A stretch of DNA of 64,000 nucleotides from Tubiluchus corallicola (Eukaryota; Animalia; Priapulida): NCBI GenBank assembly GCA_030141605.1, contig JAQGDQ010000473.1, positions 87,053 through 151,052 on the forward strand, given 5' to 3'. The notes beneath the pieces are model-generated. The model was given only the letters and a program-made list of their open reading frames with translations. It was not told the DNA's origin and searched no databases. Shown here one piece after another: positions 838 through 63,533 of this stretch. Both the position numbers and the translations under genes were made by a program. Every line of letters starts with the position of its first letter. Positions within the stretch are counted from its first letter, which is position 1.

Positions 838-1206
838 ATGGAGGTGGCTACATATCCAAATGTAAGCAAATTTTGCACGAATAGCAATGCGAAACTCAGC
901 ACTTTGGAAAGAAGAACTTCTCATACTAACTTTGCTTACGTTGATTCTAAAGAAGAACTTTTTGAAGAATGGCAAGAACGACTGAATCTAGGAAAGGTAA
1001 TACAGAGGTTTACAGTGGTTACTTATGCTTTTATGTAAAAGTGCCCCCAGCTGCAACAATACATTTATTAGCTCCTACTGGTGTGACTGAGTTTAACATT
1101 GGTGGAGATACGATATATTCTAGTTTGCAGATTTCTAAAGGAAATATAAATGCACTTAGTCCTGATGCATTAAATACGTTACTTGCTCAAAATGGCTGCC
1201 ATTATT
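838..1206 (+). mobile_element. Degenerate PIF1-type helicase fragment, probably Helitron-derived
   Basis: ORF 969..1238 contains LLAPTGVTEFNIGGDTIYSSLQI, matching the PIF1/Helitron motif APTGxAAxNIxGxTIHS. It is cut at 1207 by the Penelope-like element. Confidence 0.6.
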
Positions 1207-1247
1207 GGTTGGAAATAATATTCACAAAAACGTGTTAGCTTTCTACG

Positions 1248-1253
1248 TATAAA
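1248..1253 (+). promoter_or_regulatory. TATAAA box in the retroelement 5' end, 30 nt upstream of the viral terminus (also at 6150-6155)
   Basis: Sequence motif and spacing only; function is inferred. Confidence 0.3.
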
Positions 1254-1336
1254 CAGAGGTAGATATGTGTAGAAAACTAATCACACAAAGACGCTCATTA
1301 ACATTTTGAAACAAAGGAATAGGATATTGATAAGTC

Positions 1337-2242
1337 ATGTCCCAGCAGCAGAAGAAAACAGCCAGCGAGCAAGACGTTCAGAGATTCATCCTGGCATCCT
1401 TAGAAGACGTTAATATAGAAGATCTGAAGAAGGATGCCAAAGACATGATGGAGTTAGTAAAATTCCAGGGCTTTGATCCTGTGGAGACTGCACGTCAAGT
1501 CTTGGAATATAGTGACTGGGGTACTGGTGATGCCCCAATGTCAGATGCCTTGAAGGATGTATCCAAGATGATAGCCCTATTCCAAGCGAGAGGATCTAAA
1601 ATTGTCAATAAGTCTGGACAAAACTTTAGAATGAGTGCAGATGGGGTTAGTAGAGTTACTAACCTTATATCAAAATATCACATCGTGGCATCAGGAGGAG
1701 GACAACATGCAAAAGTCCTAACCCTACCAAGGATAGCTTTAGCTTTCTCTTACATCACATGTCAAAACTCTTACACTCTTCTTCCCGAGTCTGATACTCT
1801 CAGGCAACTCACTTGCACCGCACCAGTCAAACAGACAGCCTTTGCCAGTTTGATACCCAATGATATTGAGAATGAAGCAGATTCCACTAGGAGCATGGTG
1901 ACCACATTAATGTATGCCCATGCATATTGCATGTATGAATTAGGGAAGATCATTGGGGGAAATAAGAAACTCAGCCAAAGGCAAAGAGTGGATGAGGTGA
2001 TAAAGTTCATGAATGCAGGAATGAATAGTACAATGATCAAAAAAGAAACCAGGTTCCTAAAGCTAATAAGCCTTGGTTTAATAAATCAGACTCGCAATGA
2101 ATGGGGGCAAAACTCAACTCCTAAAATGCTGATTTATTATGCTTCTATGTGGGAACATGTAAGAGCTGAGAGACCAGACAGTGCAAGGCCCAAGCATCCA
2201 CAGGAAGATAAAGATAAAGCAGGACCTTCCCAGTCAACGTAA
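1337..2242 (+). CDS. Endogenous viral element: phenuivirus (phlebo/tenuivirus-like) nucleocapsid protein N, intact 301-aa ORF
   Basis: Motifs KFQGFDP, DVSKMIALFQARGSK, MSADGVSRVTNLISKY and LTLPRIALAF parallel phlebovirus N (FAYQGFD, DAKKMIVLALTRGNK, MSKEGKATVEALINKY, LTLSRVAAA). The ORF is intronless. The phenuivirus terminus ACACAAAGAC is at 1283-1292. Confidence 0.9.
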   Translation: MSQQQKKTASEQDVQRFILASLEDVNIEDLKKDAKDMMELVKFQGFDPVETARQVLEYSDWGTGDAPMSDALKDVSKMIALFQARGSKIVNKSGQNFRMSADGVSRVTNLISKYHIVASGGGQHAKVLTLPRIALAFSYITCQNSYTLLPESDTLRQLTCTAPVKQTAFASLIPNDIENEADSTRSMVTTLMYAHAYCMYELGKIIGGNKKLSQRQRVDEVIKFMNAGMNSTMIKKETRFLKLISLGLINQTRNEWGQNSTPKMLIYYASMWEHVRAERPDSARPKHPQEDKDKAGPSQST

Positions 2243-3395
2243 ACATATAAGGGACAATTGTTTTTGAGGCTGTCTTTGTGAGTCTTTGCTGGGTCAAGGT
2301 GTTTATGCACTGCTGCATGGGCTCGTGATTGATTGACTGCACATACTATGTGTGTTAATATGGACTTGTTTTTGTCAGAGAAGCCATTTTGTTCTTTGTT
2401 TGCATAGCAAGCAGTTGCAATCAGAAGCGCCATTTTGTTCTTTGTTTGTGGAGAATTTAGTTTTAATCAAGTTAGTTCTTTGAGGTGAGTTATTTTATGT
2501 TTTAGTTAGATTACATTACATTTGTTTTGAGTTAAAATTGCAGTTGATAGTTGCTAAAAGTTTATTTTATGTGTTTGTGTTGTATTTAGATGTTTTAGTA
2601 CAGAGAATTGTTATAATATTTAATGTTGAAGTGTAATGAGCAGAAATTCTCATAAGCTGTGTTATTTTTGTGATCTATTTATTTGGCGAGCACTTGTGTG
2701 TGTGTGTTAGTGTGTGTATGTTTATTTGTTAGTGTGCTGTAATTTTATATATTTTGTTATTTCAGTTATGGCTTTGTTATTTTTGTATTCTGATTATTTG
2801 TTGATTGTTCACGTGTATGAATATAGTCGGTAGTCTGCGATTGTGATTGTTAACGTGCCAGATTGGATTTTGCTGGTGCTTGCCTTGATAAGTTTTCAAA
2901 AGAGGGTTAAGTTTTAACATGTTTTTTTATATGCGCTTGTTTTTGGTTAGGTAGCTAGTGATATGTAATGCAAGCTTTATTTTTGTTTCAGTGGAGTTGT
3001 CTTGCTTTGTCTTTGTAATCATCAATTGTTATCGAGTTTTTAATTCTTTGAAGTAAGGTAATCCATTTTGTTTATTTTAATTTGCTTGATTTGATATCAT
3101 TTTGAAGTGTTTGTTCATGTGATTGTTTGTAGTTAAAGTAATTGTGAGGTCACATTATTGTTGTTACATTGTTGTGATGATGAAATTGTTCTTTCATTAG
3201 GGATGGGATCTTCTGAGGAGTTGTTGTCTGGGCTACTTAAGGATTTGAAGTCGGGAGGAGAACGAGATTCTGGGTTTTCTATGTCGCCAGGAGTCGAAAG
3301 AGAATCATCGCGCAGGGTCCGTGGCGGGTTAGCGGACAAGGAGAATAGAAGTGGTAACTTGTTTAAATATTTCAATAAAAAGGGTCTCGCAGGTC

Positions 3396-4200
3396 GAAAC
3401 TCAGGCAGAAGAGAGCTGCTTGGAGAAAGTATCAAAGAACAGCTTCCCGTACCAATTATGAACGATACGCTCGAACTAGGAATGTTACAACATTAGTTAG
3501 ATCAGCGAGAAGAAACTTTGAGCAAAAATTGTCGCAAGAATGTAGTAGTAATCCTAAAGCATTCTGGGCATATGTAAATTCTATATTAATGAAAAAAGAA
3601 AGGGTAAGACCCTTAAAAAGAGAAGATGGTAGCATTGCCACTACTGATCAAGAACAGGCTAACGAATTACAAAATTTTTTCACATCTGTCTATACAAATG
3701 AAGATACAAGCCAAATTCCTCAGCTACTACCAGTAACCGAGTATAAACTTGATGTGTGTAGTATCAGTGAATTAGAACTTAGTACAAAAATTAAAAAGAT
3801 GAAGGCCAACAAATCTATGGGGCCTGATGGAATTCATGCAAGTATAATTAAGAACAACGAGGATATTCTTATAAGACCAATGCTACAGAAAATGAACCAA
3901 ACTTTATCCAGTGGTATATTACCACCGAGTTGGAAAATGGCCAGAGTTTCTGCTATCCATAAAAAAAGGTGAGAGACTTAGCAAAAAATTACAGACCTAT
4001 TAGCCTGACATCAGTTGTTTGTAAATTGCTACAAGGAATACTAAGGGATAAAATCTACAACTTCATTACTGAACATAATCTCATTTGTGATAGTCAACAC
4101 GGCTTCAGAACTGGCAGATCTTGTACTACCAATTTATTAGTTTCTCTTGAAGAATGGATGGATTTACTTGAGAATAAAGGCGATGTTGATGTTATCTATA
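3396..4200 (+). mobile_element. CR1/L2-like LINE reverse transcriptase fragment, frameshifted
   Basis: NPKAFWAYVN, KSMGPDGIH, NYRPISLTSVVCKLL, QHGFRTGRSCTTNLL and VDVIY. Frameshift in an A run near 3965. Truncated before the D..KAFD motif. Confidence 0.9.
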
Positions 4201-4514
4201 CCTTACCTTGCGCACTATGTGATAGCTAGTTGAAGTCGTGTCTTACATGTATTACGGCTGTTAATTATCAGTGTTTACGCTTTTGGTACTGATGATACGT
4301 TCGTACTGAATAATATTAGAAATCCCAAAGCAAAACGATAAACGAAGCTCATTACGGTCAACTAATAAACAATCAGAAGGCATGAATATTAGTTCACATA
4401 TTGAAACCGTAGAAGTATCAACAACTCAGGACCAAAAATTGGACAAAACTTTGAGTCAACTTACTGCACTTGATATGATAATGAACGATATAAGAGAGTT
4501 AAAGGATGAACAAC

Positions 4515-6108
4515 TCTGGGGCGGAACTAGGAGGGGGCAAAGGGGGGCGCCCCCCCCCCTGCCAAATCGGACAAACAATTTTTTTTGCAGTGAAAATTGC
4601 AGCACGCATGTAATCATTTTCAATATGAATTAGAATTAGGTAGAAAAATGTTTGGTAGCTTCAGTGTGCGTGCAGACAAAACTCAGTGTCCATAGAGGTG
4701 CCTATCACAGTGTAGGCCTACAGGGACCACACACAGTCACAGGCTCTACACACAGGCCAACAGGTCTGTGTGCACAGCTATAGGATGCTGGTGTAGCAGC
4801 GGTACTATGCTGAAATTTGAGAGTGCCCTGTGCGTATAGGTACCATGCTGTAGCAGCATTACAGCACTGAACTTGGCATAGGCCTAAACCTTTTGTACGG
4901 TACAGCACGCCAAAACAAATTTGCTAAGCACACTATAGTAATAATCTCATTTCATTGTTTCATATAATTTCATTTGTAGTACGGTATTTGTGTAATTCGG
5001 GCTACTTGGCAAAATGTATATCAACGTGCCTTTATAGAACGTGGACTTTACAGAGTGTCGAATATCATATGGTTTGTGGTTTGTGGTAAAACAAAAATTA
5101 ATCAAAATTGTTTCAGAAATCTGCGCAACATGTCTGGGAATGGGGAAGACGACAAAGTTGTACCACCTAAAAAACGGCAGAAAACTTTAGACTTTTTTAT
5201 CCAAGGAAGTAAAAAGGAATCAGCATGCAACTGCAGAAGTCCAAAAAGATTATCCTGCCTCTCCCAGTGGAAAGGATCAATCAGTTTCAAAAGTTACAGA
5301 AGACGAGAAACAACCGGAGTCTCCCACTCAGAACATGAACACAAGAGCAAATGACTTAGGGCCTGTGTCTGAGAAACCACGACAACCACATATGACGAAA
5401 TATCCGAAAACTGGCCAAGGAAAGAATGCTCTTTCTTTTCAGTATAGTTGGTTCGGGAAACACTCATGGCTGGAGTACTTAAAGCAAACAGATGCAGCAT
5501 TTTGTTTTGTATGCAGGCATTTTGGTAAACAAAGACAGATTACTTGGACTGAAGTCGGATTTAAAAAATGGAAAGACGCAATGCATGATATGCAAAAGCA
5601 CGAAGAGACAGAATCACACAAAGACAGCATGTCAATGTGGGCCCTCTTCAAAAGCAGTAGCAAAACAGGTGACGTTCAAAAACGCATGCAACTTGCATAC
5701 ACAAAAAAGGACGAGAAAAAAGACAGTACATATGCAGAATCATAGCTACTGTAGAACTGTGCGCAAAACAGTGTCTTCCCCTGCGTGATCACATCGAAAC
5801 GGAAGTCAGCTCGGCCAAAGAAAATTTCCTTGAACTGCTCGCATATCTGAAAAAGTTTTATCCATTTCTGCAAACTTATACTCCACCAAAGAATGCCACG
5901 TATACGAGTGGGAAAATTCAAAACAAGGTCTTAGATATCATGTCTCATGAAATTCTGTCACAAGTGGTTCAAAGAGTGAAGAAGTCGGGGTGTTATGCAA
6001 TCATGGCAGATGAAGCAAGAGATGGAAGGACAGAATTGCTAGCACTGTGTGTGAGATTTCTCAATGTTGACAATGGTAATGTAGAGGAACATTTCGTAGG
6101 TTTCGACA
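4515..6108 (+). mobile_element. hAT transposon (ZMYM1/DUF4371 type), 5' half, degenerate
   Basis: GC-rich left end (ctggggcggaactaggaggggg). TTF-type zinc finger (FQYSWF...WLEY...AFCFVCRHF...GFKKWK...KHEETESH). DUF4371 motifs YTSGKIQN and YAIMADEARD...CVRF...VEEHFVGF. Cut at 6109. Confidence 0.85.
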
Positions 6109-9100
6109 GGTTGGAAATAATATTCACAAAAACGTGTTAGCTTTCTACGTATAAACAGAGGTAGATATGTGTGAGCAAGTTTCTGCTATAGCAGATTGTT
6201 TTTGAGGCTGTCTTTGTGAGTCTTTGCTGGGTCAAGTTGTTTATGCACTGCTGCATGGGCTCGTGATTGATTGACTGCACATACTATGTGTGTTAATATG
6301 GACTTGTTTTTGTCAGAGAAGCCATTTTGTTCTTTGTTTGCATAGCAAGCAGTTGCAATCAGAAGCGCCATTTTGTTCTTTGTTTGTGGAGAATTTATTT
6401 TTAATCAAGTTAGTTCTTTGAGGTGAGTTATTTTATGTTTTAGTTAGATTACATTACATTTGTTTTGAGTTAAAATTGCAGTTGATAGTTGCTAAAAGTC
6501 TATTTATGTATTGTATTTAGATGTTTTAGTACAGAGAATTGTTATAATATTTAATGTTGAAGTGTAATGAGCAGAAATTCTCATAAGCTGTGTTATTTTT
6601 GTGTTCTATTTATTTGGTGAGCACTTGTGTGTGTGTGTTAGTGTGTGTATGTTTATTTGTTAGTGTGCTGTAATTTTATATATTTTGTTATTTCAGTTAT
6701 GGCTTTGTTATTTTTGTATTCTGATTATTTGTTGATTGTTCACGTGTATGTATATAGTCGGTAGTCTGAGGTTGTGATTGTTAACGTGCCAGATTGGATT
6801 TTGCTGGTGCTTGCCTTGATAAGTTTTCAAAAGTGTTTAAGAATTAACATGTTTTTTATATGTGCTTGTTTTTGGTTAGGTAGCTAGTGTTATGTAATGC
6901 AAGCTTTATTTTTGTTTCAGTTGAGTTATCGTCTTGCTTTGTCTTTGTTATCATCAATTGTTATCGAGTTTTTAATTCTTTGAAGTAAGGTAATCCATTT
7001 TATTGTTTATTTTAATTTGCTTGATTTGATATCATCGTGAAGTGTTTGTTCATGTGATTGTTTGTGGTTAAAGTAATTGTGAGGTCACATTATTGTTGTT
7101 ACATTGTTGTGATGATGAAATTGTTCTTTCATTAGGGATGGGATCTTCTGAGGAGTTGTTGTCTGGGCTACTTAAGGATTTGAAGTCGGGAGGAGATCGA
7201 GATTCTGGGTTTTCTATGTCGCCAGGAGTCGAAAGAGAATCATCGCGCAGGGTCCGTGGCGGGTTAGCGGACAAGGAGAATGGAACTGGTAACTTATTTA
7301 AATATTTCAATAAAGAGGGTCTCGCAGGTCAGGTTGTGACGCGGAAGTCATCTTCTTTGTCGGTTCGGGAAAGTTTATCAGTTAAAAGACATACTAGAAT
7401 TGTTTCGGAATTGGGTGGTTATCAAAATTTGGGTACAGTTAGTGTAGTTGGTGCTAGTGGTAGCAAACGTTCTCCTTCTTCTGTGTGTTCTTCCTCGGGA
7501 TTTTTAGGTGAGAGGTTTGGTAGCAAAAGAGTAGTGTCTCGTTATAATTCTAAAACAGGTTCGTTAGAGTTAAGGCCGAAGAATCCTGCAATATCCTATG
7601 ATGGTCATGATGAAATTGTTTCGTTGGATGAGGGTGGTTCAGTAGAAAAACCAAAGGGGGAGGTTAGTAAGAGGAGTGGGGGAGTTTGCGCGAATCTAGG
7701 TTAGTGGATGAGGCTGGTGTTTCGTTAGTTGATAAGGATGTTCAGACTTAGGCAATATTAGAGTACTGGCTATTATGCAGTGAATTTGGAGTTAAGTGAA
7801 TTAGTTGGTAAGAAGTTAGACAAGATTAATGAGGCATTGCTTGAGAGGATGCAGTCTGAATTTGGGGTACGGACTCTTGTAACGAATAGTTCTAGGGCGG
7901 CTGCTGTTTTGAACACTTTGGATATTTCGCTTCGTTTAGCAATAGTGGAGTTTGACTTTGCAGAATTATATACTAATGTGAGCCATGTTGATGTACATTC
8001 TAGTGTTAAGTCAAGTTTGCTTATGTTGGATGTTGATTTTATGATATAGTCTTTTTTGCTTCTTTTAGATGAGTCTATAAATCAGAATTATTTTAGAGTG
8101 GGGGATTATATCTATAGGCAGGTTTCAGGTTTATTTATGGGTTCTAATAGCTCTCTGGCAGCTGTCAATAATGTTTTGATATGTTCTGAGTATAGGTTGT
8201 ATAAGGATCAGTCAAGTTCAATGAGTAATGTAAAGTTCTTTAAGAGGTATGCAGATGATGGTTTAGCTTTGGTTCTTTGTGATTATCTTTTGATGTTTTT
8301 GGATGTTATTAAGCAATACTATCCTGGAAGCTTGTCTTTAGAAATGAAAGTGGGATTCGATCGTGCTGTATTCCTGGATTTGGAGTTACATTTGTCAGGT
8401 ACTAGGGGAAGGAGGGCATTGATTTATACGCATGTGAAACCTCAGAATCCTACGGTTTATTTGCATTATGATTCAAATCATCCTGAATTTGTCTTTAAAG
8501 GTTTGTTTTACGGAAAGTGTGAGGAACGATCGTATTTGTAATGATTATGTGGAGTTTCATCATAGGATGGAGGTTTTTCTTCGAGTTTGCGACGTCTGGG
8601 TTATCCTGCTTCTGTTATTCGCTCTCATGTAGGGAATGTTGGTAATATTCGGGCTGCTTCATCGCCGAGAGTTCGTAATGGTGGTTTTAGGGTGTTCTAT
8701 AATTGTTTGTTTGATGCTGTTACAAGAGTGTCATCTATGGTTAGTCGCATGCTAAGGTTGAAAGGGGTTATGCAGGCTAATTCCGTAAATGGTAAATTGC
8801 GAAATGGTTATTTCAAAAGGCATCTTTCACGGGAGCTTTGGATTATAGGCCTGCTTCTGGTTGCTAGAAATAATAGGAAATTATTTTTTTAAGGTAGTTT
8901 GGTCTTTGGTTGTGTGCATTGGCATAGCTATGATGTTTTGTTTACTTGTGTAGGTTTGCGAGGTTGCTGTTGTAGTAATTATTGTTAGGTTTTTTGTTTT
9001 GTTGGTGTGCTTAGGTTTTTTGGTTCGTGTCTGTTCTTTGTGGTCTGGTGGTTTTATGTTCTTGCGTAGATTTGTTGTCTCTTTTTGTATGAACAACAAC

Positions 9101-9320
9101 AAAAAAACAATTAAACGATTAAATAAAAGATATATATATAATAGTTAGTGTATGAATTTTTTGGTAGTGCATGCTGTTTAGAGTTTTGGTGTTGCTTTTT
9201 TATGTTTTTACAGTTCTGTTTTGTGTCATTGTGTTTTCTAAAAGTAAGGCTATATGTGTTTGGAAAGTAAACCTTATAACTTTTAAAGGACTTTTCTAGT
9301 TTTTAGGAAAAAAATTTTTT
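6109..9320 (+). mobile_element. Penelope-like retroelement, copy 2 (no viral insert), with disrupted RT
   Basis: PLE-type RT motifs DFAELYTNV, YFRVGDYIYRQVSGLFMGS, FKRYADDG, FLDLEL and YLHYDSNHP in ORFs 7780-8892, with in-frame stops. Long T/G-rich UTRs. No GIY-YIG recognised. Right end approximate. Confidence 0.8.
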
Positions 9321-9324
9321 AAAG

Positions 9325-9720
9325 CCTGCATGCACAACGTGACCTACAGAACAAGTTTGATGGAAGGTCGTGTACACAGGGAAACAATCAAGTGGTTGAC
9401 AAGGAAAAGGTTGACCCTGTCATCAAGGAGCTTGATGGTGCATTTGAAATCCTGAAAGGAAGGTATAACTGTCGAACAAAGAGTTTCTGGCCAAACCAAT
9501 ACGAGCATTTGTCAAGCAATCACAGAAATTGTCCATGGACTCTGCCTTGGAACCTGCCCTTCATTGCTTTGGGAAATACGCTTCAGTTGCTGAATCTGTT
9601 GGAAACAAGAAAAAAAGAGAATGCTTGTTGGTGCAAAGTCCATTGGTGTCCAACCTACTGCAAGGGCACGCAGGAAAATATGTTTCATTTAGTGCCAAAA
9701 AACTGCATTTTGAGCTGATG
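9325..9720 (+). mobile_element. Possible MULE-like transposase C-terminal fragment
   Basis: SALEPALHCFGK...KKRECLLVQSP loosely resembles the SAL..FGK...I.VQPT tail I recall from invertebrate MULE-like proteins. Weak. Confidence 0.3.
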
Positions 9721-9956
9721 TAGTTGAGTTTCATACAAGTTGCATTTAGTGGTACAACGAGTATTTCGTGATTTTTTTGCCTGGTTTCGACAGACCGAGG
9801 TTTTTGGTGAGTTCGTTCCATATTGTTTATGCTTTGAAATTGCTAGATTAAACAGAAACTAAAATGAACTCAGTCTCTGTACATGTCAACAAATCTAAAT
9901 CAAACCATAAACGTATGAAAGAAAAACAACGCAGAACGAAATCTAGTATTGAAGTA

Positions 9957-10569
9957 CCGTATTTTCCCGTGTATAAGAGACCCTTTTTTGCTCAGAATTT
10001 TCACTTTAAAAATAAGGGGTCTCTTATACACGGGAGTAAGTCTTTTCAATCAGATGCATAAATTGTGACACTAATGATTTTAAAGAAATAAGTGCTCTAC
10101 AACTGTTTTATTTCGAATAATTATAGTTTCCTTTCAATAAATCTTCTCCATGGCTAAATTCTAATGATAAAATTATTAATATTAATCACGAAGTGGATGC
10201 AAGATGCCGACTCCAATCTGACACCAACTGGCAAGATAAGAAAGCCAACCCTTGGAGAAGTCTGCAGCTGGGTCCTCAAGGCATGGAATGGTGTAAAGCC
10301 AGAGGTCATTATTAAATCTTTCAAGAAGTGTGGCATCTCCAATGCCATGGACGGCACAGAGGACAATGCCATTTTTGAGCAGAGTGACTCCTCTGATGAT
10401 GAACTGGCTGGAATTGCAGTTGATATTTTTGATGAGAGTGATGAGGAATTTAATGATTTCTATGATGAATAAAGTTATTCATTACCAAAAAACTTTTTTC
10501 CAGAATTTTTGCCTAAAAATTGAAGGGGTCTCTTATACACAAGGGTCTCTTATACACGGGAAAATACGG
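9957..10569 (+). mobile_element. Internally deleted pogo/Tigger-type DNA transposon with intact TIRs and TA TSD
   Basis: TA|CCGTATTTTCCCGTGTATAAGAGACCC...GGGTCTCTTATACACGGGAAAATACGG|TA. The internal ORF has the pogo C-terminus TPTGKIRKP...WVLKAW...IIKSFKKCGISNAMDGTED. Confidence 0.9.
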
Positions 10570-10619
10570 TAGATCATGTAGCCGGCGTTGTCTCAAATAA
10601 CGGGTCATTAACCCTTGAC

Positions 10620-11290
10620 ACATCATCTAAACGTGTAACCTGCCCTAAATGTAAAACAGTTGTTAAGGATTATGATAAAGGCGTATCGTGTGAAATATGC
10701 GACAGATGGTTCCACACATCATGTGTCAGTGTGAGTGATACATTGTATGATGTACTGATGAATGATGAGAATGATGTCCACTGGTACTGTACTTACTGCA
10801 ACAGCGCAGCCCTGCAATTGAAACAGGACATCATAAATTTGCAGTCTAAGTTTGAGAAAATTGAAACTGACCTGAATAAGGTAACAGACAAAGTTACAAC
10901 AATCGACGATAAGCTGGAGGCTTTTAGTAAAAATGTTAACTCAAAAATAAATGCTATAGAAAAGAAAATCTTTCATAGAGGTAATCTGAGTGACAGTGAA
11001 GCAGACAACCTATTTGAAGATTTTAATGAACGAATGCAAAAAAAGGCAAGAAAAGACTAGCATCATAATACATGGGCTTACACCAGTCGCAGACTGCCAG
11101 TGGTACGAGCAATGGGTTCAAAATACATTGAACATAAAAGTCAAAATCGTGGAATCAAAGCCGCTCAAAGTAGCATCTAAAATGACATCCACATCTACAG
11201 GACCAGTTAGGATCTGTCTTTCACATCCTGGTCAAAAATGGCAAGTATTAAGAGTCATTCCACGAGAAAACCATGCAAAAGTCAAAAAAT
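10620..11290 (+). mobile_element. LINE ORF1 fragment (PHD finger plus coiled coil, CR1/L2 type)
   Basis: CPKCK...VSCEICDRWFHTSCV...WYCTYCN, followed by a heptad-rich region and an IIIHGL motif. Interrupted by a stop/frameshift. Confidence 0.75.
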
Positions 11291-12800: not shown

Positions 12801-12859
12801 ATCTAGTGTTTTGATTATCCAATAGTGATCAAAGTCAGAAAATTGATAAATCATATCTG

Positions 12860-14407
12860 CTTGGATTCTTCAAAATCAGGAACAATCTAAAATTAGTTGA
12901 TGACAACGGTGTGGCTGATGATGAGAAACAGAGGGACAGATTGTGGAAGGTGCGACCGCTGCTGAACTCGGTTCGCCAGGGTTGTTTGGTGATGCACCGA
13001 AGCAACAATGTATCCATCGATGAACAGATGATTCCGTTTACGGGGCGATGCAGCATGAAACAATATGTTAGAGGAAAACCCAATCCAGTGGGGTTGAAAA
13101 ACTTTGTTGCTGCCAATCCTGATGGATTAATATTAGATTTCAGAATCTACACCGGTAACAACACGTTTGAGGATATCAACTCGCCATTGGGTTTGGCTGC
13201 CAAGGCTGTACTCTGTTTGTCAGAAACAATGGCAAGAGACACTGTGATATACTGTGACCGTTTCTTTACGAGTGTGCCTCTTGCTGCTGCACTGCTGAAC
13301 CACCATCTACATCTGACTGGTACAATCATGTGGAACAGAGTATCTGCAGTGAGTGGCAACCTGTCTCCTGATGTGCAACTGAAAAAACAACCCAGAGGCA
13401 CTTCAGCTGAAGTCGTGTCAGATAATTCAGAAACTGTTCTGATAAAGTGGTTTGATAACAAACCAATCTTGATGCTGTCTACAGCGGTAGGCAAGAATCC
13501 GGAAGGGACTTGTCGCAGGTGGTCGAAAGCTGCGCAAGCTCGTGTAACAATAAACTGTCCTGCTGCCGTCATCTCGTACAACCAAAACATGGGGGTGTCG
13601 ACATGCACGATCGACTTCTCAGCTATTATCGGTCCCAGACGCGAACAAAGAAGTGGACCATCAGGACAATTCTTCACTTCTTCGATGTTGCTGTTGTGAA
13701 CAGCTGGATTCAGTACAGAAATGACAGAGCTGCCCTAGGAGACAGGCGCAAAGACATCATGCAGCTGATGGACTTTAAAATGGATGTTGCAGAGGCCTGG
13801 ATAGCCACACCTCCTCATCAATCTGAGTCTAGCTCAGATGATGAGCCACAACCAGGGCCATCAGCCAAGCGTAAGTGCCAGCCGATGCTGTCGCAACACA
13901 AGCGCTACAGTAGTGCGATGCACTTACCGGAAATGACTGAAGTACCATCTGGCAGTCGCTGCCGCAGAGAGGGCTGCTCTGGCAGAACAAAAGTATGCTG
14001 TTGCACATGTGAAGTGTTTCTGTGTTTGACATCCAAAAATAACTGCTTCAAAGCATTCCATGGCCAGTAGTATTCAGTAGCCAGTAGTATTCAGTACTTC
14101 GCAGTATTCTAGACAGACAGACCTTAATTCAACTCAGAGACCTTACTTTTGCTTTAACTGGACCTTGATGTGATTAAAACAGTTGAACTTGATTAATTGT
14201 TGTCATTGTTTTATCTTGAAATAAAGTCATTTTTCCATGAAATATGTCGCGACTAAGACCCATTGTGAATTGTAATGCACATAGGAGGTCAAGGTCAAGG
14301 ATGATCATGAAAAAACTTGGTGTGTAAGTTCACTAGGATCTGTATGTTATAAAAAGTCTATAATATTAAGAAAAAAAACACATGAATTTATCTTGGGTCT
14401 CAGGAGG
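12860..14407 (+). mobile_element. piggyBac (PGBD) transposase 3' part with right end, frameshifted
   Basis: SIDEQMIPFTGR, KQYVRGKPNPVGLK, YCDRFFTS, YNQNMGGVD and a C-terminal cysteine-rich domain (RCRREGC...CCCTCEVFLC...CFKAFH). The right end reads gggtctcaggagg. Confidence 0.92.
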
Positions 14408-17272
14408 TTGGAGTTAACAATACTTGCTCAGAACACTGAGACGTTCAGTTCTATAACTGGCAAAAGTATTATAGATGTTATTATAACAAATAACTTTACA
14501 GCAGCAAAGGTTCTATCTCAAACAGTGGACAAAGATGCGGAATTTTTTACCGGGGCTCCCACAATGGGGCACCATCCCGTTATAACAGAGTTTAGGGTAA
14601 ATCGGAGCAGGCTAAACAACCGACGTACGAGATATGACTTCAAGCGAAGCAACTGGACGGACTGGTCGCATGTTTTGGAGGAGAAAATGAGAGCACTTTA
14701 TCCAACAGTCACAACAGAGCTACAAAACAGAAATGCCAATAACGTGTGGGCATTATTTTTAAATGCTATTCAGGAAGCCAACAATGAAGCCCTGGTGACG
14801 AAAACTATTTCAGCACACAGTAAACCCTTCTGGACACCTCAGCTGCCAGTGCTTTCCAGCGAATTACGAGAACTGAAAAGAGCCTACAAATAGCATTCTA
14901 ATTACATAAACCTAAATGCCTACCAGAGTAAAAAAGAACAATTTCAAAACAAACTGTCAGACGAACTAAATAACTGGGTTATTCAAAATACTGCAGATTT
15001 AAATGTACAGAGAGGAAATGACTTTTGGAAAACTCATCAAAAATTGTTTGGAGATAGCAGTGAAAATGGTGTAGATATTTTAAAGGTAAATGATGTTTAT
15101 TATACAAACGAAAACAATAAAAGTAGGATATTGTATGAAACATTTTTCAATGGTAGTCATTTAGACAATAATGCTTTTGATCATGCTTGGTTTGAACATG
15201 TAGAAAATGAAGTAGCTGAAGGAATTAATTTAAATCAAGAAACTAATCATTGGTTTAACGAAAATTTTACAATGGCTGAAATCACCGTTGCGATAAAAAA
15301 CATGAAGGTTTCCAATAAAAGCGTATTGACTGTGATGGATGCCACCCACTCATTGGGGAAGAGTTTATTATTAAATCTAGCTAATGTGTGTTTAAGAACA
15401 GGTAAATGGCCATGGAACAGTGCAAAAGTAATATACTTCCGTAAAGATGGAAGAAACGATTACAGTGACCCATCAAACTATAGCCCAATTACGATTGCGT
15501 CCTATTATGGCAAAATAGTAGAAAAACTCATAGAGATCAGATTGAGAACCTGGTTAAATGACAATAACATTATAGATCAAGAGGAGGAAGGATTTCAACC
15601 CTTGCGTAGCACAAATCGCTATCTGCTTAGACTAGTTTCCGCTATTGAAAGAAACGGGCTTCAAAACTGTGTTGGAATTGCAGTCTTCTGTGACTTCACA
15701 AAGGCCTTCGATAGCATTTGGGTTGATGGTTTAATATTTAAGTTAGCCCAAGCAGGGGTAGCAGGCAGGCTTTTGAAATTGATTTTTTCATTTCTGAAAA
15801 ACAGGCGTATTAAAATACGATTGACCAAAACAGTAATATTTTGAAGTTTAAATTTGCTGATGAAGGCACAATTTATGTGTACGCAAATACAAATAATGAA
15901 TGCTACGAATTGGCTAAGTTGTCATGTGATAAACTTCATACCTGGTGTTCTAAATGGAGGCAGATGTTGAACTGTAATTTAAACAAAACAGAAGCTATTG
16001 TTTTTGAAAATGATCAAAACCCCAGCTTGCCAAAATTACGTTTTGGTAACAAAGAGATTAATTATGTTAACAACACGAAAGTGCTTGGAATTACTGTCGA
16101 TAAACAAATAAGTTTTGATAAACATGTTGCTAAAATTAGACAAAAAGCTTGGAAAAAGTGGCACAACATTAAACAGTTATCTTTTAAGTATAAAGGTATG
16201 AAAATGTCCACCATTTTAAAGCTGTTTGAAACAATTGTTGTACCTACCGTCTTCCATGGGTCAGTTGCCTGGACGGTCAAAAAGCATAGTTATTTTGAAG
16301 ACCTGTGGTATGAAGTTGTCAAAACAGCAGCGGGTGTAGGTTACAATCCTAGCAAAAATGAAATCCAGCGTATTTGTGGCGTGCCTCCCATTGATATAAC
16401 GTATGATAATATATGTAGTAAATTTATGTTAAAAGTGTTAGCCAATCCAGATAATGATCTACTTAAGAAGGAAATAGCTATATGTGAAACCATGCCAAAT
16501 AATGCTAGATATTGTGTGCATCCCGTAAAAATTCACCTGGCAACTACCAAATCTTTCTTGAAGATTACAAAGGACACTAATATGAGAAATCAAACATTGT
16601 CAAATCTCCCGAGGGAAAACTTTATTTATCGGAAAAAGGATGGCTCGAAATTTTTAACAACCCAATGGGAAAGAAGATTTTATTATTGTGCCCAAATAGC
16701 AAATTTACCACTAGATAGTCCTACACCTATGTTAACGCCGCTGTGTCTACCACTAACGCATTACGAAAGGCTTATTGAAACAACTGCATTAAACTTACTT
16801 TTAAATAGAGGAACTAAATCATTTCGGTATAGAATAGGCGAACAAAATACGGATTGCTGTCATTGTAATAATGCAACTCCTCAAACACCAGAACACACTA
16901 TATTTGACTGTGATTTGGTAGACCATCAATTTCGAATGAATATAAGACAAGTTCTGCCCTCAGCCAACATAAGTGAGATTTATCTAAATAGAGATAAAGA
17001 TGTGTGCCAGGCATATGTAAATATTGTTAGAGATGTTGTGCGAAAAAATTGCTATAAAGTAACTCAAATTATATTCACAGAAAAACAGGTATTGAGTTAA
17101 TCGTTATATTGTATATAATATAGTGTAAACTATGTATGTACTTTAAATTTATTGTAAATAGGCATCATGTATAATCTTGTTATTGTAAATTTATATTTTG
17201 TAAACGAACCCCTGCAAATAGAGGGGAAACAATGTATTCATTGTTTAATAAAAGAATTATAATAATAATAAT
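14408..17272 (+). mobile_element. 5'-truncated LINE ORF2 (end of APE endonuclease, RT, C-terminal CCHC), probably I-group
   Basis: SIIDVII...HHPVI, NYSPITIAS, GFQPLRST, DFTKAFDSIW, KFADE and CHC...TPEHTIFDC. The GVPQG segment is deleted near 15840. The 3' UTR ends in AATAAA and (AAT)n. Confidence 0.88.
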
Positions 17273-22108: not shown

Positions 22109-25100
22109 CTAATCAGAATCGCTTTCATCTCTTATCGTAGCAGCTCGTATAGAAGAATCCATGACATCACGAATCTTTGGCCGCGGATCAGTCTTTATTG
22201 TTGACTGCCAAGCACCTGCCTCTGACAGCTTCCACTCGAGCACTGCAAATGGACAAAGCGAACACGCTCATAATTAATCAAATTAAAGGTTTCACCAGTT
22301 CAAAAAGAATTTTAGCAAATAGAAACATCAACTCCCTGGAAAGTGCTAGTAATAATATTTTGTAGGAAATGTAGTGACATCTATAAAAATAAGCATTATA
22401 AACTGATATCTGCTTAAGAAATGAACTGCTCCAATGAAAATTTTGGCTATACTGCACGAATTTGACATAAGACATAGCACAGATGTATAGTGGACCAGTT
22501 TCAGAAAGGTTAGTATTTTGAGTTAACGGGTAGACTTCCTCTGCATGCATTACTCATCATGCAAGCTTTCATTTTTCCTGATCAGCTTTTTACACAACAA
22601 TGTATACAAATTGATGCAAAATTCACCTGGACAGAAAATCAATAGGTAATAGAATGATAAGTAATAGACAACAGTGACAACTGAACCGTCACGACGTTTA
22701 ATTCCATCTCCTCGTGGTGGTGACTATACCACATTGAGGAAATGTTCTCTCTACATTTTTACACCTAATTGCTGCAAACAAGCTGCTTGGCACACAAGGT
22801 CTAAGGGTTAATTCTTGTCATAACACAACACAAGCAGTTTATAAATTCCCCATCAAAACTGACAGAACATTCACAAAAATTTATTATGTTAGTTAATTAT
22901 GCAGATACCTAAAGTCAATTAGAATCATTTTACTAACAAAATATGAAGTAAGTAGAGCTATCTAAAAACTAACTAAACAGTATTGGATGCACTCCTATAT
23001 CAGCAATGTCAATAGTCTCTGATGCACAACATTGCACTTACACTAATATTAAGTCAAACTTCAAAATATACAAAAAGCACAAGCTAAACACGCATTTTGT
23101 GACAAGCGTTAACATTAAATTTCGGGCAAAAATTGCAAAAAAACTTGTAAAAAAGTTATCTGAAACTGTTATATCTAACTTGTTTATATAAGACGAGAAT
23201 AAGTGCTAAAGGTAAGCAGTGTCATGCCTGGATACCAATTGGATGAGTAATTGCGAAGACTTTTCAGGATGCCAAACTCTATAGACAGAAACAACAACCA
23301 ACCACTCTTGCACATTCATAAAGTGACAGTTTGAAAAAAATCATCTATATGCAATATAATTTAGTCCATAGTATAGTTAACAAAGTTTCTGTTATAATGT
23401 AATTGTAAATGAATTCAGGTAACTCACCATCTATTGTCAAATTCATGCCACCAAACTCATGTGGTCCAATAATTTGCTTCTTTAGTTCCCCTTCATAATA
23501 TACAAATATGCTGGGTAGATTTTTATCTGGGTAGTTTGGTATACACGTTGATGAAACACTTTTCAGCACCTTCGTCACGGGAAACCTGATAGCCAGTTGT
23601 TCTAGATACTGATTGATCAAAGCACACAATGGAATACTACAAAAAAGTGAAAGCAACATAATATTCAGCATGTCCACATTTGACGAATAAATTAGAAATT
23701 TCACTGCAGAAGACTGATGCTGCAGAACTAGGTGGATTTTTGCGCATTACGGCTAGTGGTGGTTAGTTAAAATATCACTTTTGTTTTCATCCTGCAGGTA
23801 AGCAGATTTGATGTTCAATTTGACCACCTTATTATCATCACTTTTTTTCCATTATAAAATTATTCGAATAGTTTCCACACTTTATCAACACCAAGAACAG
23901 ACGTTGGCAAGTCTCTTACAAGTCTCAAGTTAAGTCCCAGGTCTTTGGCATAAGTCTCAAGTTAAGTCCCAGGTCTTTGGCATAAGTCTCAAGTTAAGTC
24001 CCAGGTCTTTGGCATAAGTCTCAAGTTAAGTCCCAGGTCTTTGGCATAAGTCTCAAGTTAAGTCCCAGGTCTTTGGCATAAGTGTCAAGTTAAGTCCCAG
24101 GTCTTTGGCATAAGTCTCAAGTTAAGTCCCAGGTCTTTGGCATAAGTCTCAAGTTAAGTCCCAGGTCTTTGGCATAAGTCTCAAGTTAAGTCCCACGTCT
24201 TTGGCATAAGTCTCAAGTTAAGTCCCATGTCTTTGGCATAAGTCTCAAGTTAAGTCCCAGGTCTTTGGCATAAGTGCCAAGTTAAGTCCTAGGTCTTTGG
24301 CATAAGTGTCAAGTTAAGTCCCAGGTCTTTGGCATAAGTCTCAAGTTAAGTCCCAGGTCTTTTGCATAAGTCTCAAGTTAGGTCCTAGGTCTTTGGCATA
24401 AGTCTCAAGTTAAGTCCCAGGTCTTTGGCATAAGTCTCAAGTTAAGTCCTAGGTCTTTGGCATAAGTCTCAAGTCAAGTACTAGGTCTTTGGCATAAGTC
24501 TGAAGTGAAGTCCCAGGTCTTTTGCATAAGTCTCAAGTTAAGTCCCAGGTCTTTGGCATAAGTCTCAAGTTAAGTCCCAGGTCTTTGGCATAAGTCTCAA
24601 GTCAAGTACTAGGTCTTTGGCATAAGTCTCAAGTTAAGTCCTAGGTCTTTGGCATAAGTCTCAAGTTAAGTCCTAGGTCTTTGGCATAAGTCTCAACTTA
24701 AGTCCCAGGTCTTTGGCATAAGTCTCAAGTTAAGTCCTAGGTCTTTGGCATAAGTCTCAAGTTAAGTCCTAGGTCGTTGGCATAAGTCTCAAGTTAAGTA
24801 CTAGGTCTTTGGCATAAGTCTCAAGTTAAGTCCTAGGTCTTTGGTATAAGTCTCAAGTTAAGTCCCAGGTCCTTGGCATAAGTCTCAAGTTAAGTCCCAG
24901 GTCGTTGGCATAAGTCTCAAGTTAAGTCCTAGGTCTTTGGCATAAGTCTCAAGTTAAGTCCTAGGTCGTTGGCATAAGTCTCAAGTTAAGTCCTAGTCCT
25001 TGGCATAAGTCTCAAATCAAGTACTAGGTCTTTGGTATAAGTCTCAACTTAAGTCCCAGGTCCTTGGCATAAGTCTCAAGTTAAGTCCTAGGTCGTTGGC

Positions 25101-28100
25101 ATAAGTCTCAAGTTAAGTCCTAGTCCTTAGCATTAGTCTCAAGTCAAGTACTAGGTCTTTGGCTAAGCTAAAATAAGCTGTTTGCATAAATTTATTAGGT
25201 AGGTGCTGTTTATTACAGTCACAGTTAATAGAATCGGTCGCGTAATTGACTCAAAAACACCTGGAAAAGGAATGCTAGTGTATATAAAAACTGTTGATAA
25301 TTGACTCAATATTTTTACTTAACATACTTAAAATAAGACACTTGTGTGTGCCCAAAAAGCTTTTACTGCTTTTATGTCATCTTTACGTCGATTTTGTGCA
25401 CAATAACATACGTAGAAACAGTCATGTTAAGTACAGCTTTGTTTGTAAGCAGGTACAGTATGTTTATCATATGCACTAATATATTGTCATAGCAGTTTTG
25501 CTTTGAATCTGTCAGCCGCTTGTCCACTGCAATTAACCTCATTGTTTCTGAAAGCTAAACATTTAATCACTTGACCAGCGGTTTGCTTTTGAAGTTCCCG
25601 CTGCTTTTCACAGGGGAAACAAGGTCATCACCAACTGCAGCTCAAGCACAAAGTGACTAGGTGTTTTTGTGAATATGTACAGTATACAGCAAGAGTTTTC
25701 AATGTTTTTATCATTATGAGAATTTCATAAACCAACTTCTTCGTGAAGAAATGAAACAACCGACCTTGCATGAATTTTTGTAATTTTTAAGGTAATAATC
25801 AGATTTTTTTCTTTTTTATTAATTCACTTACATACATTATGCTTCGTAAATAGTTGCAAATCATTTTGACATTAATTCATTTCAAAAATTCATTAAAAGC
25901 CTTTGCAGTGCATACTAAGATGATGACTCGTACTTAGACTAAATCCTTCAGCTAATTGACTCAGTCAGTTAATTGGGTCAAAACACTTCCCAAAGTGAGT
26001 CTATCAAGTGGCGCCGCCTGTATTATAATACTTACCCAGGCTTATATAAATGTAAAACAACCCAGATTCCATTTCCAGCTTTATTGACATGAGTAACGTA
26101 ATCTTCTGCACTGATCTCTCTCACGTCACCAAATTTAGACTTTTCGGCGAGCTTCTTTAATTCTTCTAGACGCTGTTGCCTGAAATACATGAAGGATACT
26201 ACACGTATACATATTATACTACTTGCATACATCTTATTACAAATGAAAGTTTTAACATGTATAGCAAAATCAAAACCACGAACGTCATTTGTTAGAAGAA
26301 AAATGCACTACAAAGAAAATTCTAAAATAAGTAAAATATTTTGTTTTTTGTCTGTTTTTATTTGCTGTGATGCAAAATTACTGATAAAAACTAAAGGATG
26401 TTTTATACTATAGAACCTCAAACTTGACGTAGTGGCTTATATTAGAAAAATTAATGTGTTACAATTCTTTCGATTTAACTATCCTTAACGATTAATATTT
26501 AAAGATCATAATGATTCATTAAAATAAAGAAATTTTATTTTGTAGATATTTTGTTGCCTATATTTTATAAATTATAAAATTAAAAATGATTTTGCTCAAA
26601 AAAATTCAAACGTGGTTTGATATTTCGTTTGAATAGACCTGGAGACCATAAAACTTCACAGTGGTCAGCACTGACGATATGCTGCACTGCTGTGAAAAAT
26701 ATGTCACAAACTGTTATGTGTCAACGAAATTTGCACTTTGTTTGAACTATTTTAGCCAAGATTTTTCAGCAGTTTTTGACATCTAAAAGAAATGAAAAGG
26801 TAAATTGGATAAATACTAGTAAAAAAACCTCTGAAAAATGCCACTGAAAATTATCCGAAATTTCCACGACAAAACTTAACAAATTCCGCCGAAACCGAAA
26901 CTCAAACGAAAGCGCAATTATCGGCAAATTGAACCGAGAATTTCATTTCGGTAACATCCCTGCATACGTAACACCTGTCCATCTCTTACCTGTACAAGCA
27001 TAACACCTTTCATCCACTTACCTGTACAAGCATAACACCTGTTCATCCACTTACCTGTACAAGCATAACACCTGTTCATCCACTTACCTGTACAAGCATA
27101 ACACCTGTTCATCCACTTACCTATACAAGCATAACACCTGTTCATCCACTTACCTGTACAAGCATAACACCTGTTCATCCACTTACCTGTACAACCATAA
27201 CACCTGTTCATCCACTTACCTGTACAAGCATAACACCTGTTCATCCACTTACCTGTACAAGCATAACACCTGTTCATCCACTTACCTGTACAAGCATAAC
27301 ACCTGTTCATCCACTTACCTGTACAAGCATAACACCTGTTCATCCACTTACCTGTACAAGCATAACACCTGTTCATCCACTTACCTGTACAAGCATAACA
27401 CCCGTTCATCCACTTACCTGTACAAGCATAACACCTGTTCATCTACTTACCTGTACAAGCATAACACCTGTTCATCCACTTACCTGTACAAGCATAACAC
27501 CTGTTCATCCACTTACCTGTACAAGCATAACACCTGTTCATCCACTTACCTGTACAAGCATAACACCCGTTCATCCACTTACCTGTACAAGCATAACACC
27601 CGTTCATCCACTTACCTGTACAAGCATAACACCCGTTCATCCACTTACCTGTACAAGCATAACACCCGTTCATCCACTTACCTGTACAAGCATAACACCT
27701 GTTCATCCACTTACCTGTACAAGCATAACACCTGTTCATCCACTTACCTGTACAAGCATAACACCTGTTCATCCACTTACCTGTACAAGCATAACACCTG
27801 TTCATCCACTTACCTGTACATGCATAACACCTGTTCATCCACTTACCTGTACAAGCATAACACCTGTTCATCCACTTACCTGTACAAGCATAACACCTGT
27901 TCATCCACTTACCTGTACAAGCATAACACCCGTTCATCCACTTACCTGTACAAGCATAACACCCGTTCATCCACCTACCTGTACAAGCATAACACCCGTT
28001 CATCCACTTACCTGTACATGCATAACACCTGTTCATCCACTTACCTGTACAAGCATAACACCTGTTCATCCACTTACCTGTACAACCATAACACCTGTTC

Positions 28101-49027: not shown

Positions 49028-63533
<14,506 letters not shown>

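Follow-up and report, generated by a model that had tools for sequence, protein, structure and literature searches.

An intact phenuivirus-type nucleocapsid gene in a Penelope-like element copy of Tubiluchus corallicola, and an empty allele at the same locus

Introduction

How did an intact nucleocapsid (N) gene of an RNA virus come to lie inside one copy of a Penelope-like element (PLE) in the priapulid Tubiluchus corallicola? Endogenous RNA-virus elements usually are old fragments whose template and route of entry have to be guessed. At the locus studied here (a window of 64,000 nt, to which all positions refer), the ends of the template look readable, with a leader, a viral terminus and a likely stop. 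In addition, an allele from before the insertion is available, the same sample contains a second event with a different leader, and an N gene of 99.6% identity abounds in another sample. The locus thus makes testable how a non-polyadenylated bunyavirus mRNA enters the germ line without LINE-type poly(A) priming or an LTR partner. A sequence-only reading had proposed that the reverse transcriptase (RT) of the element made a chimeric cDNA, which was then inserted here. We favor, at a probability of about 0.55, that the intact N gene is a DNA copy of a capped mRNA, written recently by a host RT during the repair of a break in a resident copy of the element.

Results and Discussion

Element Copies and the Site of the Insert

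Two copies of the element lie on the + strand of the window. Copy 1 consists of a 5' part (1195–1270) and a remainder (2257–3395), and copy 2 is the empty form (6109–9300, with an approximate 3' end based on G+T skew). Positions 1207–1270 are identical to 6109–6172 across 64 nt, and 2257–3395 align with 6195–7330 at 96.4% identity (1145 columns; BLAST E = 0). Between these blocks, 986 nt of copy 1 (1271–2256) take the place of 22 nt of copy 2 (6173–6194, + strand), exactly as the sequence-only reading had described, and the N gene (1337–2242) has the same sense as the RT frame (7138–8892), both being on the + strand. The last 12 of the 22 nt (6183–6194) are a perfect palindrome that ends at the right junction.

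The earlier statement that the copies start at the same base is correct for copies 1 and 2 but does not apply to the family, because a third, diverged copy in runs X1 and X2 also matches 1195–1229. The family sequence therefore extends upstream of 1207 by 12 nt or more, and the start of copy 2 is internal to it. In the third copy position 1229 is joined to 2383, and arithmetic on the contig record leaves at most 241 nt between them (189 in the empty and 1153 in the filled form). The diverged copy in X1 also has a homologue of the first half of the 22 nt, with a loose contig end behind 1252; within the window, neither the 22 nt nor the 64 nt have a further good match. Copy 1 ends at a LINE-like RT fragment at 3395 (contig loose ends at 3394–3396), the LINE label being judged by eye from the translation of a fragment with no Pfam match. 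Copy 2 lies within a hAT-like ORF, with DUF4371 directly upstream. The different flanks, the presence of more diverged copies in X1–X4, and the fact that copy 2 was unseen in X3 indicate a dispersed family, as the earlier reading had assumed, and a local segmental duplication was rejected. An 11-nt repeat (6099–6109 and 9783–9793) was considered as a target-site duplication (TSD) of copy 2 and discarded, since the hAT frame does not visibly resume. A TATAAA hexamer does stand just before the insert (1248–1253), as had been pointed out with the suggestion that it could drive N expression, but it is not distinctive, with 108 such hexamers on both strands of the window (about one per 600 nt).

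The Inserted Transcript

The 986 nt are composed of a 12-nt leader, the terminus ACACAAAGAC (at 1283), a 54-nt untranslated region (UTR), a gene for a 301-aa nucleocapsid protein, and a 14-nt tail. The leader (1271–1282, + strand) is neither viral nor element sequence and likely was cap-snatched from a host mRNA. It is followed by what resembles a phenuivirus-type N transcript in DNA form (1283–2254, + strand), which comprises the terminus, the 5' UTR, the ORF and 12 nt after the stop codon. Two additional letters at the 3' junction (2255–2256, + strand) may be untemplated or a remnant of the 22 nt. ACACAAAGAC has two forward matches in the window; the one at 1283 agrees with the conserved 5' terminus ACACAAAG(U/A)C. 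Passages of PMC8148189 report ACACAAAGUC for tenuiviruses and as partly common to other phenuivirids.

The ORF (1337–2242, + strand) is intact and matches the Pfam family Tenui_N (PF05733; E 9e-18, 65.1 bits, cut-off 25) as well as the sequences of 12 solved nucleoproteins (E ≤ 0.01, lowest 3.3e-11), in agreement with the earlier identification as the N gene of an RNA virus. Its product is longer than the solved nucleoproteins (301 versus 245–257 aa) and no close relative was found: a word-indexed protein search (666 candidates), Atlas, viral_contigs and metagenome_contigs contained none. The gene appears to record a divergent phenuivirus-type lineage.

The junction sequences show neither poly(A) nor a TSD, as noted before, and 22 nt of the target are lost. 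The insert hence lacks the poly(A) tail and the TSD of retrocopies made by LINE-type target-primed reverse transcription. It does have the mark of an endogenous viral element (EVE) derived from mRNA, a non-viral leader of about 10–20 nt (here 12 nt) that differs between events. According to passages of PMC5533932, phlebovirus mRNAs are cap-snatched, without poly(A), and shorter than the segment, and the relevant part of PMC8148189 gives leaders of 12–18 nt for two groups of bunyaviruses that infect plants. With the N mRNA of Phenuiviridae (phlebo- and tenuiviruses), as these passages portray it, the insert shares the Tenui_N family, the terminus ACACAAAG and the leader, and likewise the missing poly(A) and, probably, an end before the segment end. 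It is shaped like a cap-snatched, non-polyadenylated N mRNA and probably was copied from a capped viral mRNA including the stolen 12-letter leader. Its 3' end likely corresponds to the transcription stop, as judged from contig depth and not raw reads. In X3 the match to N begins at 1283, the contigs run into other letters past 2254, and the depth is 402.5 just before this point and 30.8 past it (contigs only, type of X3 unrecorded).

Classification of the Reverse Transcriptase

Copy 2 contains a single, decayed ORF with 7 in-frame stops (7138–8892, + strand), whose predicted Penelope-like RT spans 7780–8889 and is not accompanied by a GIY-YIG domain. An exhaustive search with the RT yielded 932 matches at E ≤ 0.001 (best 6.3e-23). 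A word-indexed search retrieved no relatives, and searching the solved sequences with a profile of 12 RTs brought up no RT at E ≤ 1. Telomerase is the best fold match (Z 16.5, rmsd 2.8, 209 aligned), followed by R2 (12.8) and LINE-1 (11.6), and three of the 29 RT matches scanned were RT+GIY-YIG proteins. Foldseek alone did not separate the RT classes and ranked retrons, a group II intron RT, and telomerase together. Taken together, the matches, the fold and the GIY-YIG relatives bear out the earlier assignment to the PLEs. GIY-YIG was absent from the 13 best RT matches scanned (0/13), and the ORF ends 210 aa past the YADD motif, like most clade neighbors (about 200–223). Placement among the canonical EN+ Penelope elements (Penelope/Poseidon, Neptune, Nematis, Hydra) was rejected because their C-terminal GIY-YIG endonuclease is missing. 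By these comparisons the RT is classed as Penelope-like and natively endonuclease-less, and it seems to belong to an endonuclease-less clade without a name, whose nearest relatives are metagenome proteins.

Endonuclease-deficient PLEs (Athena, Coprina, and families with EN loss), as characterized in parts of PMC8557442, share the telomerase-nearest RT fold and the absence of GIY-YIG after the thumb. The element studied here differs from them in that no pseudo-LTR or hammerhead was found and in that it is set among other transposons. The comparison of its 5' region with 8800–9500 scored 80 (shuffles ≤98), with the 3' end of copy 2 unfixed and copy 1 truncated. Rfam gave no hammerhead match at E ≤ 5 in 1000–9600, a search that minimal hammerheads can escape, and a hammerhead core pattern matched solely outside the copies.

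The Empty Allele and the Route of Insertion

The element copy that holds the intact phenuivirus-type N gene is empty in another sample at the same locus. Contigs of all four runs examined contain the joint of 1270 to 2257 with the same 22 letters in between. In X3, one unbroken contig of 799 nt (depth 12.1) unites the unique flank, the 22-nt form and copy-1 sequence. It comprises 910–1270 (0 differences), the 22 nt, and 2257–2672, where it has 3 differences and 0 gaps against copy 1 while copy 2 has 7 gap columns, and it offers 121–255 letters per side of the site. Neither a filled junction nor the flank and indels of copy 2 occur in X3, and the depth over 1194–1281 is fully explained (0 unexplained). 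Evidence for the empty allele comes from a single contig in a single run of unrecorded type. That the 22-nt form is ancestral, which the earlier reading had proposed to check, is supported by the contigs. Because the same unique flank adjoins the empty form in X3, N most likely entered a resident copy. This argues against the insertion of a carried chimera, and the earlier claim that the RT of the element made a chimeric cDNA that was then inserted here is not supported in that form. Only two options would leave room for a switch of templates by the Penelope-like RT: recombination of the chimeric cDNA into the resident copy, or later emptying of the X3 allele by gene conversion. The element likely served as the landing site of the viral gene, not as its carrier.

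The second of these two options, a chimeric cDNA that arrived as a new copy and an X3 allele that became empty by later gene conversion or by assembly collapse, is improbable. The X3 allele does carry the letter of copy 2 at 2299 (one shared letter), contigs lose rare variants, and PLEs are able to mobilize foreign sequence in trans, as stated in a passage of PMC3846280. However, the X3 contig tracks copy 1 without a break or gap to 2672, the flank and indels of copy 2 are missing, and N is 99.6% identical to the N of X3 (4 differences in 972 nt) whereas copies 1 and 2 differ by 3.6%. N therefore appears to postdate the divergence of the two copies, and its insertion looks recent. Two of the 4 differences are synonymous and two nonsynonymous, numbers that are uninformative on selection.

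The filled form was seen once. Its junction in X1 has the depth of a single flank (217.6 and 178.5 in the junction records, 186.4 in the unique flank), the same paths exist in X2 and X4, there is no filled junction in X3 (two samples examined), and N was not seen in any other copy of the element. These depths and paths make it very hard to believe that the insert is an assembly or library chimera of host DNA and viral sequence. Such an artefact would accord with the observations that no listed contig covers the whole stretch and that contigs of sample S1 cross each filled junction by only 30 letters on the short side, one below the 31-letter bridging rule; an overlap of 30 letters is expected where the contig graph branches. 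S1 possibly is the source of the window itself, and its junction contigs thus are not independent support.

Break repair in a resident copy, the reading preferred here, would have begun in a germ-line cell, where the virus produced an N mRNA that was cap-snatched and not polyadenylated. The resident copy would have broken at or near the small palindrome, and the downstream broken end may have primed reverse transcription at the 3' end of this mRNA, or a pre-made cDNA may have been captured. End joining would then have sealed the 5' side with the loss of 22 nt. Junctions with a target deletion and extra letters fit endonuclease-independent insertion as described in passages of PMC1920257. A LINE RT and an intact relative of the endonuclease-less Penelope-like RT would both serve as the acting enzyme; no RT is tied to the insertion event. 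Against break repair, it leaves unexplained that the pairing between the viral 5' end and the element extends to the right junction and that the palindrome ends there. The shared letter at 2299 is also compatible with gene conversion by a paralogue of the empty form.

A second N copy was detected in sample S1 (run X1), which diverges from the window copy exactly at 1283 and has different letters ahead of this position, i.e., another leader. The N contig of X1 likewise begins exactly at 1283, at a depth of 374, twice that of the flank (186). The upstream letters of the second copy have no match within the window, so that event did not use the present site.

Complementarity between the Viral 5' End and the Element

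A tract of the element that is complementary to the viral 5' end is located at 2257–2279 and 6195–6217 (+ strand) and is found in the empty allele of X3, too. The pairing between the 5'-terminal 30 nt of the virus and the element stops precisely at the right junction (−25.2 kcal/mol; 3/5000 shuffles) and ranks first by z among 95 30-mers of the insert, 3 of the 95 being stronger in raw energy. An exact 9-mer complement (2271–2279 and 6209–6217) is yielded by 105 of 20,000 shuffles. No non-self match in the window surpasses the duplex and its copy-1 twin. As the complementarity was spotted before testing, these pairing statistics are post hoc; this, the three stronger 30-mers and the shuffles that yield the 9-mer caution against giving the match much weight. 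The sequence-only reading mentions neither this complement nor the viral terminus at 1283 or the 12-nt leader. The 22 nt fold as a weak hairpin (−7.2 kcal/mol), the 12-nt palindrome of which reaches up to the junction; the 64 kb contain 29 palindromes of such kind.

Given this complementarity at the right junction, tethering and a template switch by the Penelope-like RT stay in play. Element RNA would pair with the 5' end of the viral mRNA via the tract at 6195–6217. The RT would stall at the hairpin, jump to the 3' end of that mRNA, copy it to the cap and rejoin the element RNA 22 nt further on, and the chimeric cDNA would replace the empty copy at the locus by recombination. This route is unlikely. 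In its favor are the duplex and the palindrome that both end at the right junction, the rank of the pairing, the hairpin, and the shared sense of N and RT. The two extra letters are compatible with a jump preceded by untemplated addition, a step that the R2 RT requires according to a passage of PMC8857657, and endonuclease-less PLE families are said to exploit accessible 3'-OH ends in the part of PMC8557442 that concerns them. However, two jumps plus a recombination are demanded, the ORF of copy 2 has 7 stops, an intact source copy was not encountered, the sequence ahead of the second N copy in S1 is unmatched in the window, and the pairing statistics are post hoc.

A bolder idea, to which we assign a small probability, is that this endonuclease-less PLE family has a decoy near its 5' end, beside a hairpin, that is complementary to the conserved 5' end of phenuivirus mRNAs. 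The decoy would tether viral messages, and the RT would write them into resident copies. If true, this would be a sequence-guided trap that turns circulating virus mRNA into heritable insertions, observed here at a stage at which the insertion is still polymorphic.

The tract might instead be viral itself. The viral part would then extend to 2279, with 2257–2279 as the 3' end of the viral complementary strand, the insert would represent a segment, either complete or with an internal deletion, and an older viral end would already be present in the empty copies. In the predicted fold of 1283–2280, positions 1283–1309 and 2257–2279 do form a panhandle (about 10 paired letters, a bulge and further pairs) that resembles the tenuivirus pattern in a passage of PMC8148189. 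This explanation is quite improbable, however, because the tract is present without N in copy 2 and in the empty allele of X3, sequence of the element family flanks it without interruption on either side, and the N of X3 gives way to different sequence past 2254. A search of viral_contigs did not retrieve the tract either, which is a weak negative. A variant that takes 1283–2279 as an entire segment and copy 2 as the result of a deletion was given less weight on account of the empty allele and of the other continuation past 2254.

Comparison with Known Systems

Among titles and the openings of abstracts, a search space that excludes most subscription journals and supplements, no report was found of an EVE with a cap-snatched leader or of a PLE carrying an RNA virus gene, and the relevant passages checked for "cap-snatch" do not describe such an EVE, which is weak evidence of novelty. 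The bornavirus- and filovirus-like endogenous elements attributed to LINE-1 (passages of PMC3205384) also are copies of one negative-strand transcript, contain a nucleoprotein gene and are ascribed to a host RT. In contrast to the present insert, they have poly(A) and TSDs, whereas here neither occurs, the 12-nt leader is retained and 22 nt of the target are deleted. Endonuclease-independent L1 insertions, in the portrayal given by parts of PMC1920257, share the target deletion, extra junction letters, the capture of other RNAs and the interpretation as break repair, but the cargo here consists solely of viral mRNA, to which no part of an acting element is joined. Viral sequence within a retroelement is also known from LCMV-IAP recombinants and from the LTR-associated NIRVS of Aedes (passages of PMC3205384 and PMC5497376), and one Aedes bunyavirus insertion sits in a full-length Pao-Bel element (PMC5497376, same passages). 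Unlike these cases, the element described here is Penelope-like and without LTRs, the insert appears to span an entire transcript with two readable ends, and the same locus also occurs in an empty form.

Boundaries of the viral insert

The two copies of the Penelope-like element (PLE) lie as the sequence-only reading had placed them: positions 1207-1270 and 6109-6172 share 64 identical letters, after which copy 1 has 986 nt (1271-2256) and copy 2 only 22 nt (6173-6194). Downstream of the insert, the copies are 96.4% identical over 1145 columns, up to 3395/7330. The insert contains one intact ORF (1337-2242, 301 aa), which is assigned to Pfam Tenui_N (E 9e-18) and matches 12 solved nucleoprotein sequences (E<=0.01); it is referred to here as N. 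Twelve non-viral leader letters (1271-1282) precede the viral terminus ACACAAAGAC, which starts at 1283 and is followed by a 54-nt UTR and the ORF, and the insert closes 12 nt after the ORF with two extra letters. The window contains 108 TATAAA hexamers, among them that at 1248-1253.

Outside evidence came from contigs of public runs, four of the six listed containing the stretch (two samples, two studies). Runs X1, X2, and X4 derive from one sample (S1), possibly the window's own source, and X3 from another sample of unrecorded type. Because contigs from X1 and X3 fix its boundaries, the viral part can be set at 1283-2254. The N contig of X1 starts exactly at 1283, at a depth of 374 versus 186 for unique flank (twofold), and a separate X1 record carries different letters ahead of this position; S1 has N a second time, next to a different 5' sequence and diverging at the viral terminus. 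The shared contig of this second copy (1283-2242) breaks past the stop codon at 2242. The match of X3 to N likewise starts at 1283, preceded by 29 unlike letters, and the sequence departs from the window after 2254, where one record continues at depth 30.8 versus 402.5 just before. According to passages of PMC8148189, ACACAAAGUC is the tenuivirus terminus, partly common to other phenuivirids, and cap-snatched non-viral leaders of 12-18 nt occur in tospo- and emaraviruses. Phlebovirus mRNAs also obtain their cap by snatching, lack polyadenylation, and are shorter than their own segment (PMC5533932, in part). We infer, with good support, that the insert is a copy of a cap-snatched mRNA. That transcription stopped at 2254 is less well supported, since the evidence consists of contigs and X3 is possibly a DNA run.

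The window and X3 versions of N are distinguished by 4 differences over 972 nt (two synonymous, two nonsynonymous), one of which recurs in contigs of X1 and X2 that collapse two copies. Searches of four sequence collections gave no close relative of N. Over 1283-2254 the depth of N in X3 is 159-402 versus 12.1 for unique flank, and bin arithmetic near 2224-2254 leaves approximately 6,900 depth x nt for an unlisted record (approximately 230 over 30 nt). Two X3 N contigs end in tips that resemble Illumina adapter. Two readings would account for the N excess: the library contained RNA from a live virus, or N is DNA that was amplified, perhaps in tandem.

An empty allele and the order of events

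Without a break, record 17 of X3 (length 799 nt, depth 12.1) matches 910-1270 with no differences, contains the 22 nt, and continues over 2257-2672 with 3 differences and no gaps. Copy 2 has 7 gap columns versus copy 1 in the latter stretch, and X3 shows depth 0 for them. Since there is no unexplained depth over 1194-1281, X3 shows neither the filled junction nor the copy-2 flank. This record presents copy 1 empty at its native locus (hereafter the empty allele), as seen in one contig of one run, and contigs drop rare variants. The sequence-only reading proposed that the RT of the element switched template onto viral RNA and that the chimeric cDNA was inserted as a new copy. Such an event would leave no empty allele with the same flank; thus, N most likely entered a resident element copy, and recently. 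The allele in X3 speaks against the proposal, which would require a later conversion there and is very unlikely. At 2299 the empty allele carries the letter of copy 2, which may be ancestral there or mark a conversion tract.

The observation is real and more informative than first thought, for another reason, namely the mRNA copy and its pre-insertion allele. The insert is likely a recent and polymorphic copy of a bunyavirus-type capped mRNA, probably from end to end. The element probably served as landing site rather than vector.

Mechanism of insertion

Poly(A) and target site duplications (TSDs), which LINE-made bornavirus elements carry (PMC3205384, in part), are both absent at the N insert. 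It resembles instead endonuclease-independent L1 insertions, whose marks, target deletion and extra letters, are read as break repair and which sometimes capture other RNAs (PMC1920257, in part). We favor break repair, at a probability of roughly 0.55: a host RT, as candidate enzyme, would have copied viral mRNA, or ready cDNA would have been caught, while a break in the resident copy was repaired.

Break repair leaves one observation unaccounted for. The initial 30 nt of the viral part base-pair with an element tract that extends from the right junction to 6217, at -25.2 kcal/mol. In a scan of 21,322 overlapping windows, the best non-self matches were this tract and its counterpart in copy 1, the energy was reached in 3 of 5000 dinucleotide shuffles, and the 30 nt rank first by z-score among 95 insert 30-mers. 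A 12-nt palindrome, one of 29 in the window, also terminates at the junction. Pairing and palindrome would suit a reading in which the PLE RT switched template onto tethered viral mRNA and the product then recombined into the resident copy, or one in which an older viral end lies inside the element. However, 3 of the 95 30-mers have a stronger raw pairing energy, the exact 9-mer of the pairing recurs in 105 of 20,000 shuffles, and the pairing test was made after the match had been sighted. The tethered switch is rather unlikely, and an older viral end very unlikely.

The element and its reverse transcriptase

Copy 2 has a single frame (7138-8892) with 7 in-frame stops. Its part 7780-8889 (X at stops) gives 932 protein hits (E<=0.001), the best with 6.3e-23; the RT plus GIY-YIG architecture occurs in 3 of 29 scanned hits, and GIY-YIG in none of the 13 best hits scanned. 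A tree was built from the query and 66 of 150 hits, none of them a named PLE; to be included, hits had to be at least 380 aa long and to have a usable YxDD match with flanks. It places the query in a clade of 14 (FastTree support 0.84) nested in one of 15 (0.97). No member of either clade was flagged for an endonuclease motif by a pattern that misses some. The query RT ends 210 aa past YADD, like most of these neighbours, and the absence of the endonuclease is therefore native, not a truncation. The clade consists mostly of unnamed proteins (9 of 10 clusters looked up), many of approximately 750 aa and ending soon after the thumb without GIY-YIG, and possibly represents an undescribed endonuclease-less PLE lineage. 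Families without endonuclease (EN) emerge inside EN+ PLE clades, and telomerase is the sister group of PLE RTs (PMC8557442, in part). Telomerase is also the best fold match of the predicted RT model (pLDDT 86.7; Z 16.5, rmsd 2.8, 209 aligned). Telomerases fill four of the six top rows of the fold comparison, R2 (Z 12.8) and LINE-1 (Z 11.6) score below, and Foldseek did not separate the RT classes. Searches at the element found neither pLTR nor hammerhead. The RT is Penelope-like and belongs to an unassigned EN-less lineage outside canonical Penelope.

Diverged family copies are present in all four runs, and the element is a dispersed family. It begins upstream of 1207, because one diverged copy matches 1195-1229, and the 22 nt are family sequence, because one diverged copy has a homologue of their first half. 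The flank and indels of copy 2 (6109-9300) were unseen in X3; copy 2 itself may be a polymorphic insertion, despite its 7 ORF stops. An exact 11-nt direct repeat at 6099-6109 (5' edge of copy 2) and 9783-9793, 3.7 kb downstream, is either a TSD or due to chance. The sense strand of the element is strongly G+T rich (GC skew approximately 0.4).

Endogenisation of RNA viruses from mRNA is already known, as are viral inserts within retroelements (PMC5497376, in part) and foreign sequence mobilised by PLEs (PMC3846280, in part). No account of an EVE that retains its cap-snatched leader, or of an RNA virus gene carried by a PLE, was seen in the literature searched, which lacked most subscription journals; prior reports may exist.

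Genomic surroundings

The element lies in a dense nest of transposon remains (3379-6108, 9955-10571, 10524-11060, 12815-14070, and 14285-17100), which contains a hAT-like DUF4371, a 31-nt inverted repeat pair, a PHD-finger ORF, a DDE_Tnp_1_7 transposase, and, labelled by eye, a LINE-like RT fragment and another LINE-like ORF. By eye, a frame at 23345-23746 (minus strand) resembles a host exon of phosducin-like type. Several long minisatellite arrays, whose units measure 16-42 nt, occupy 23800-25100, 26900-28600, 38700-40100, 42000-42800, and 51700-55400.
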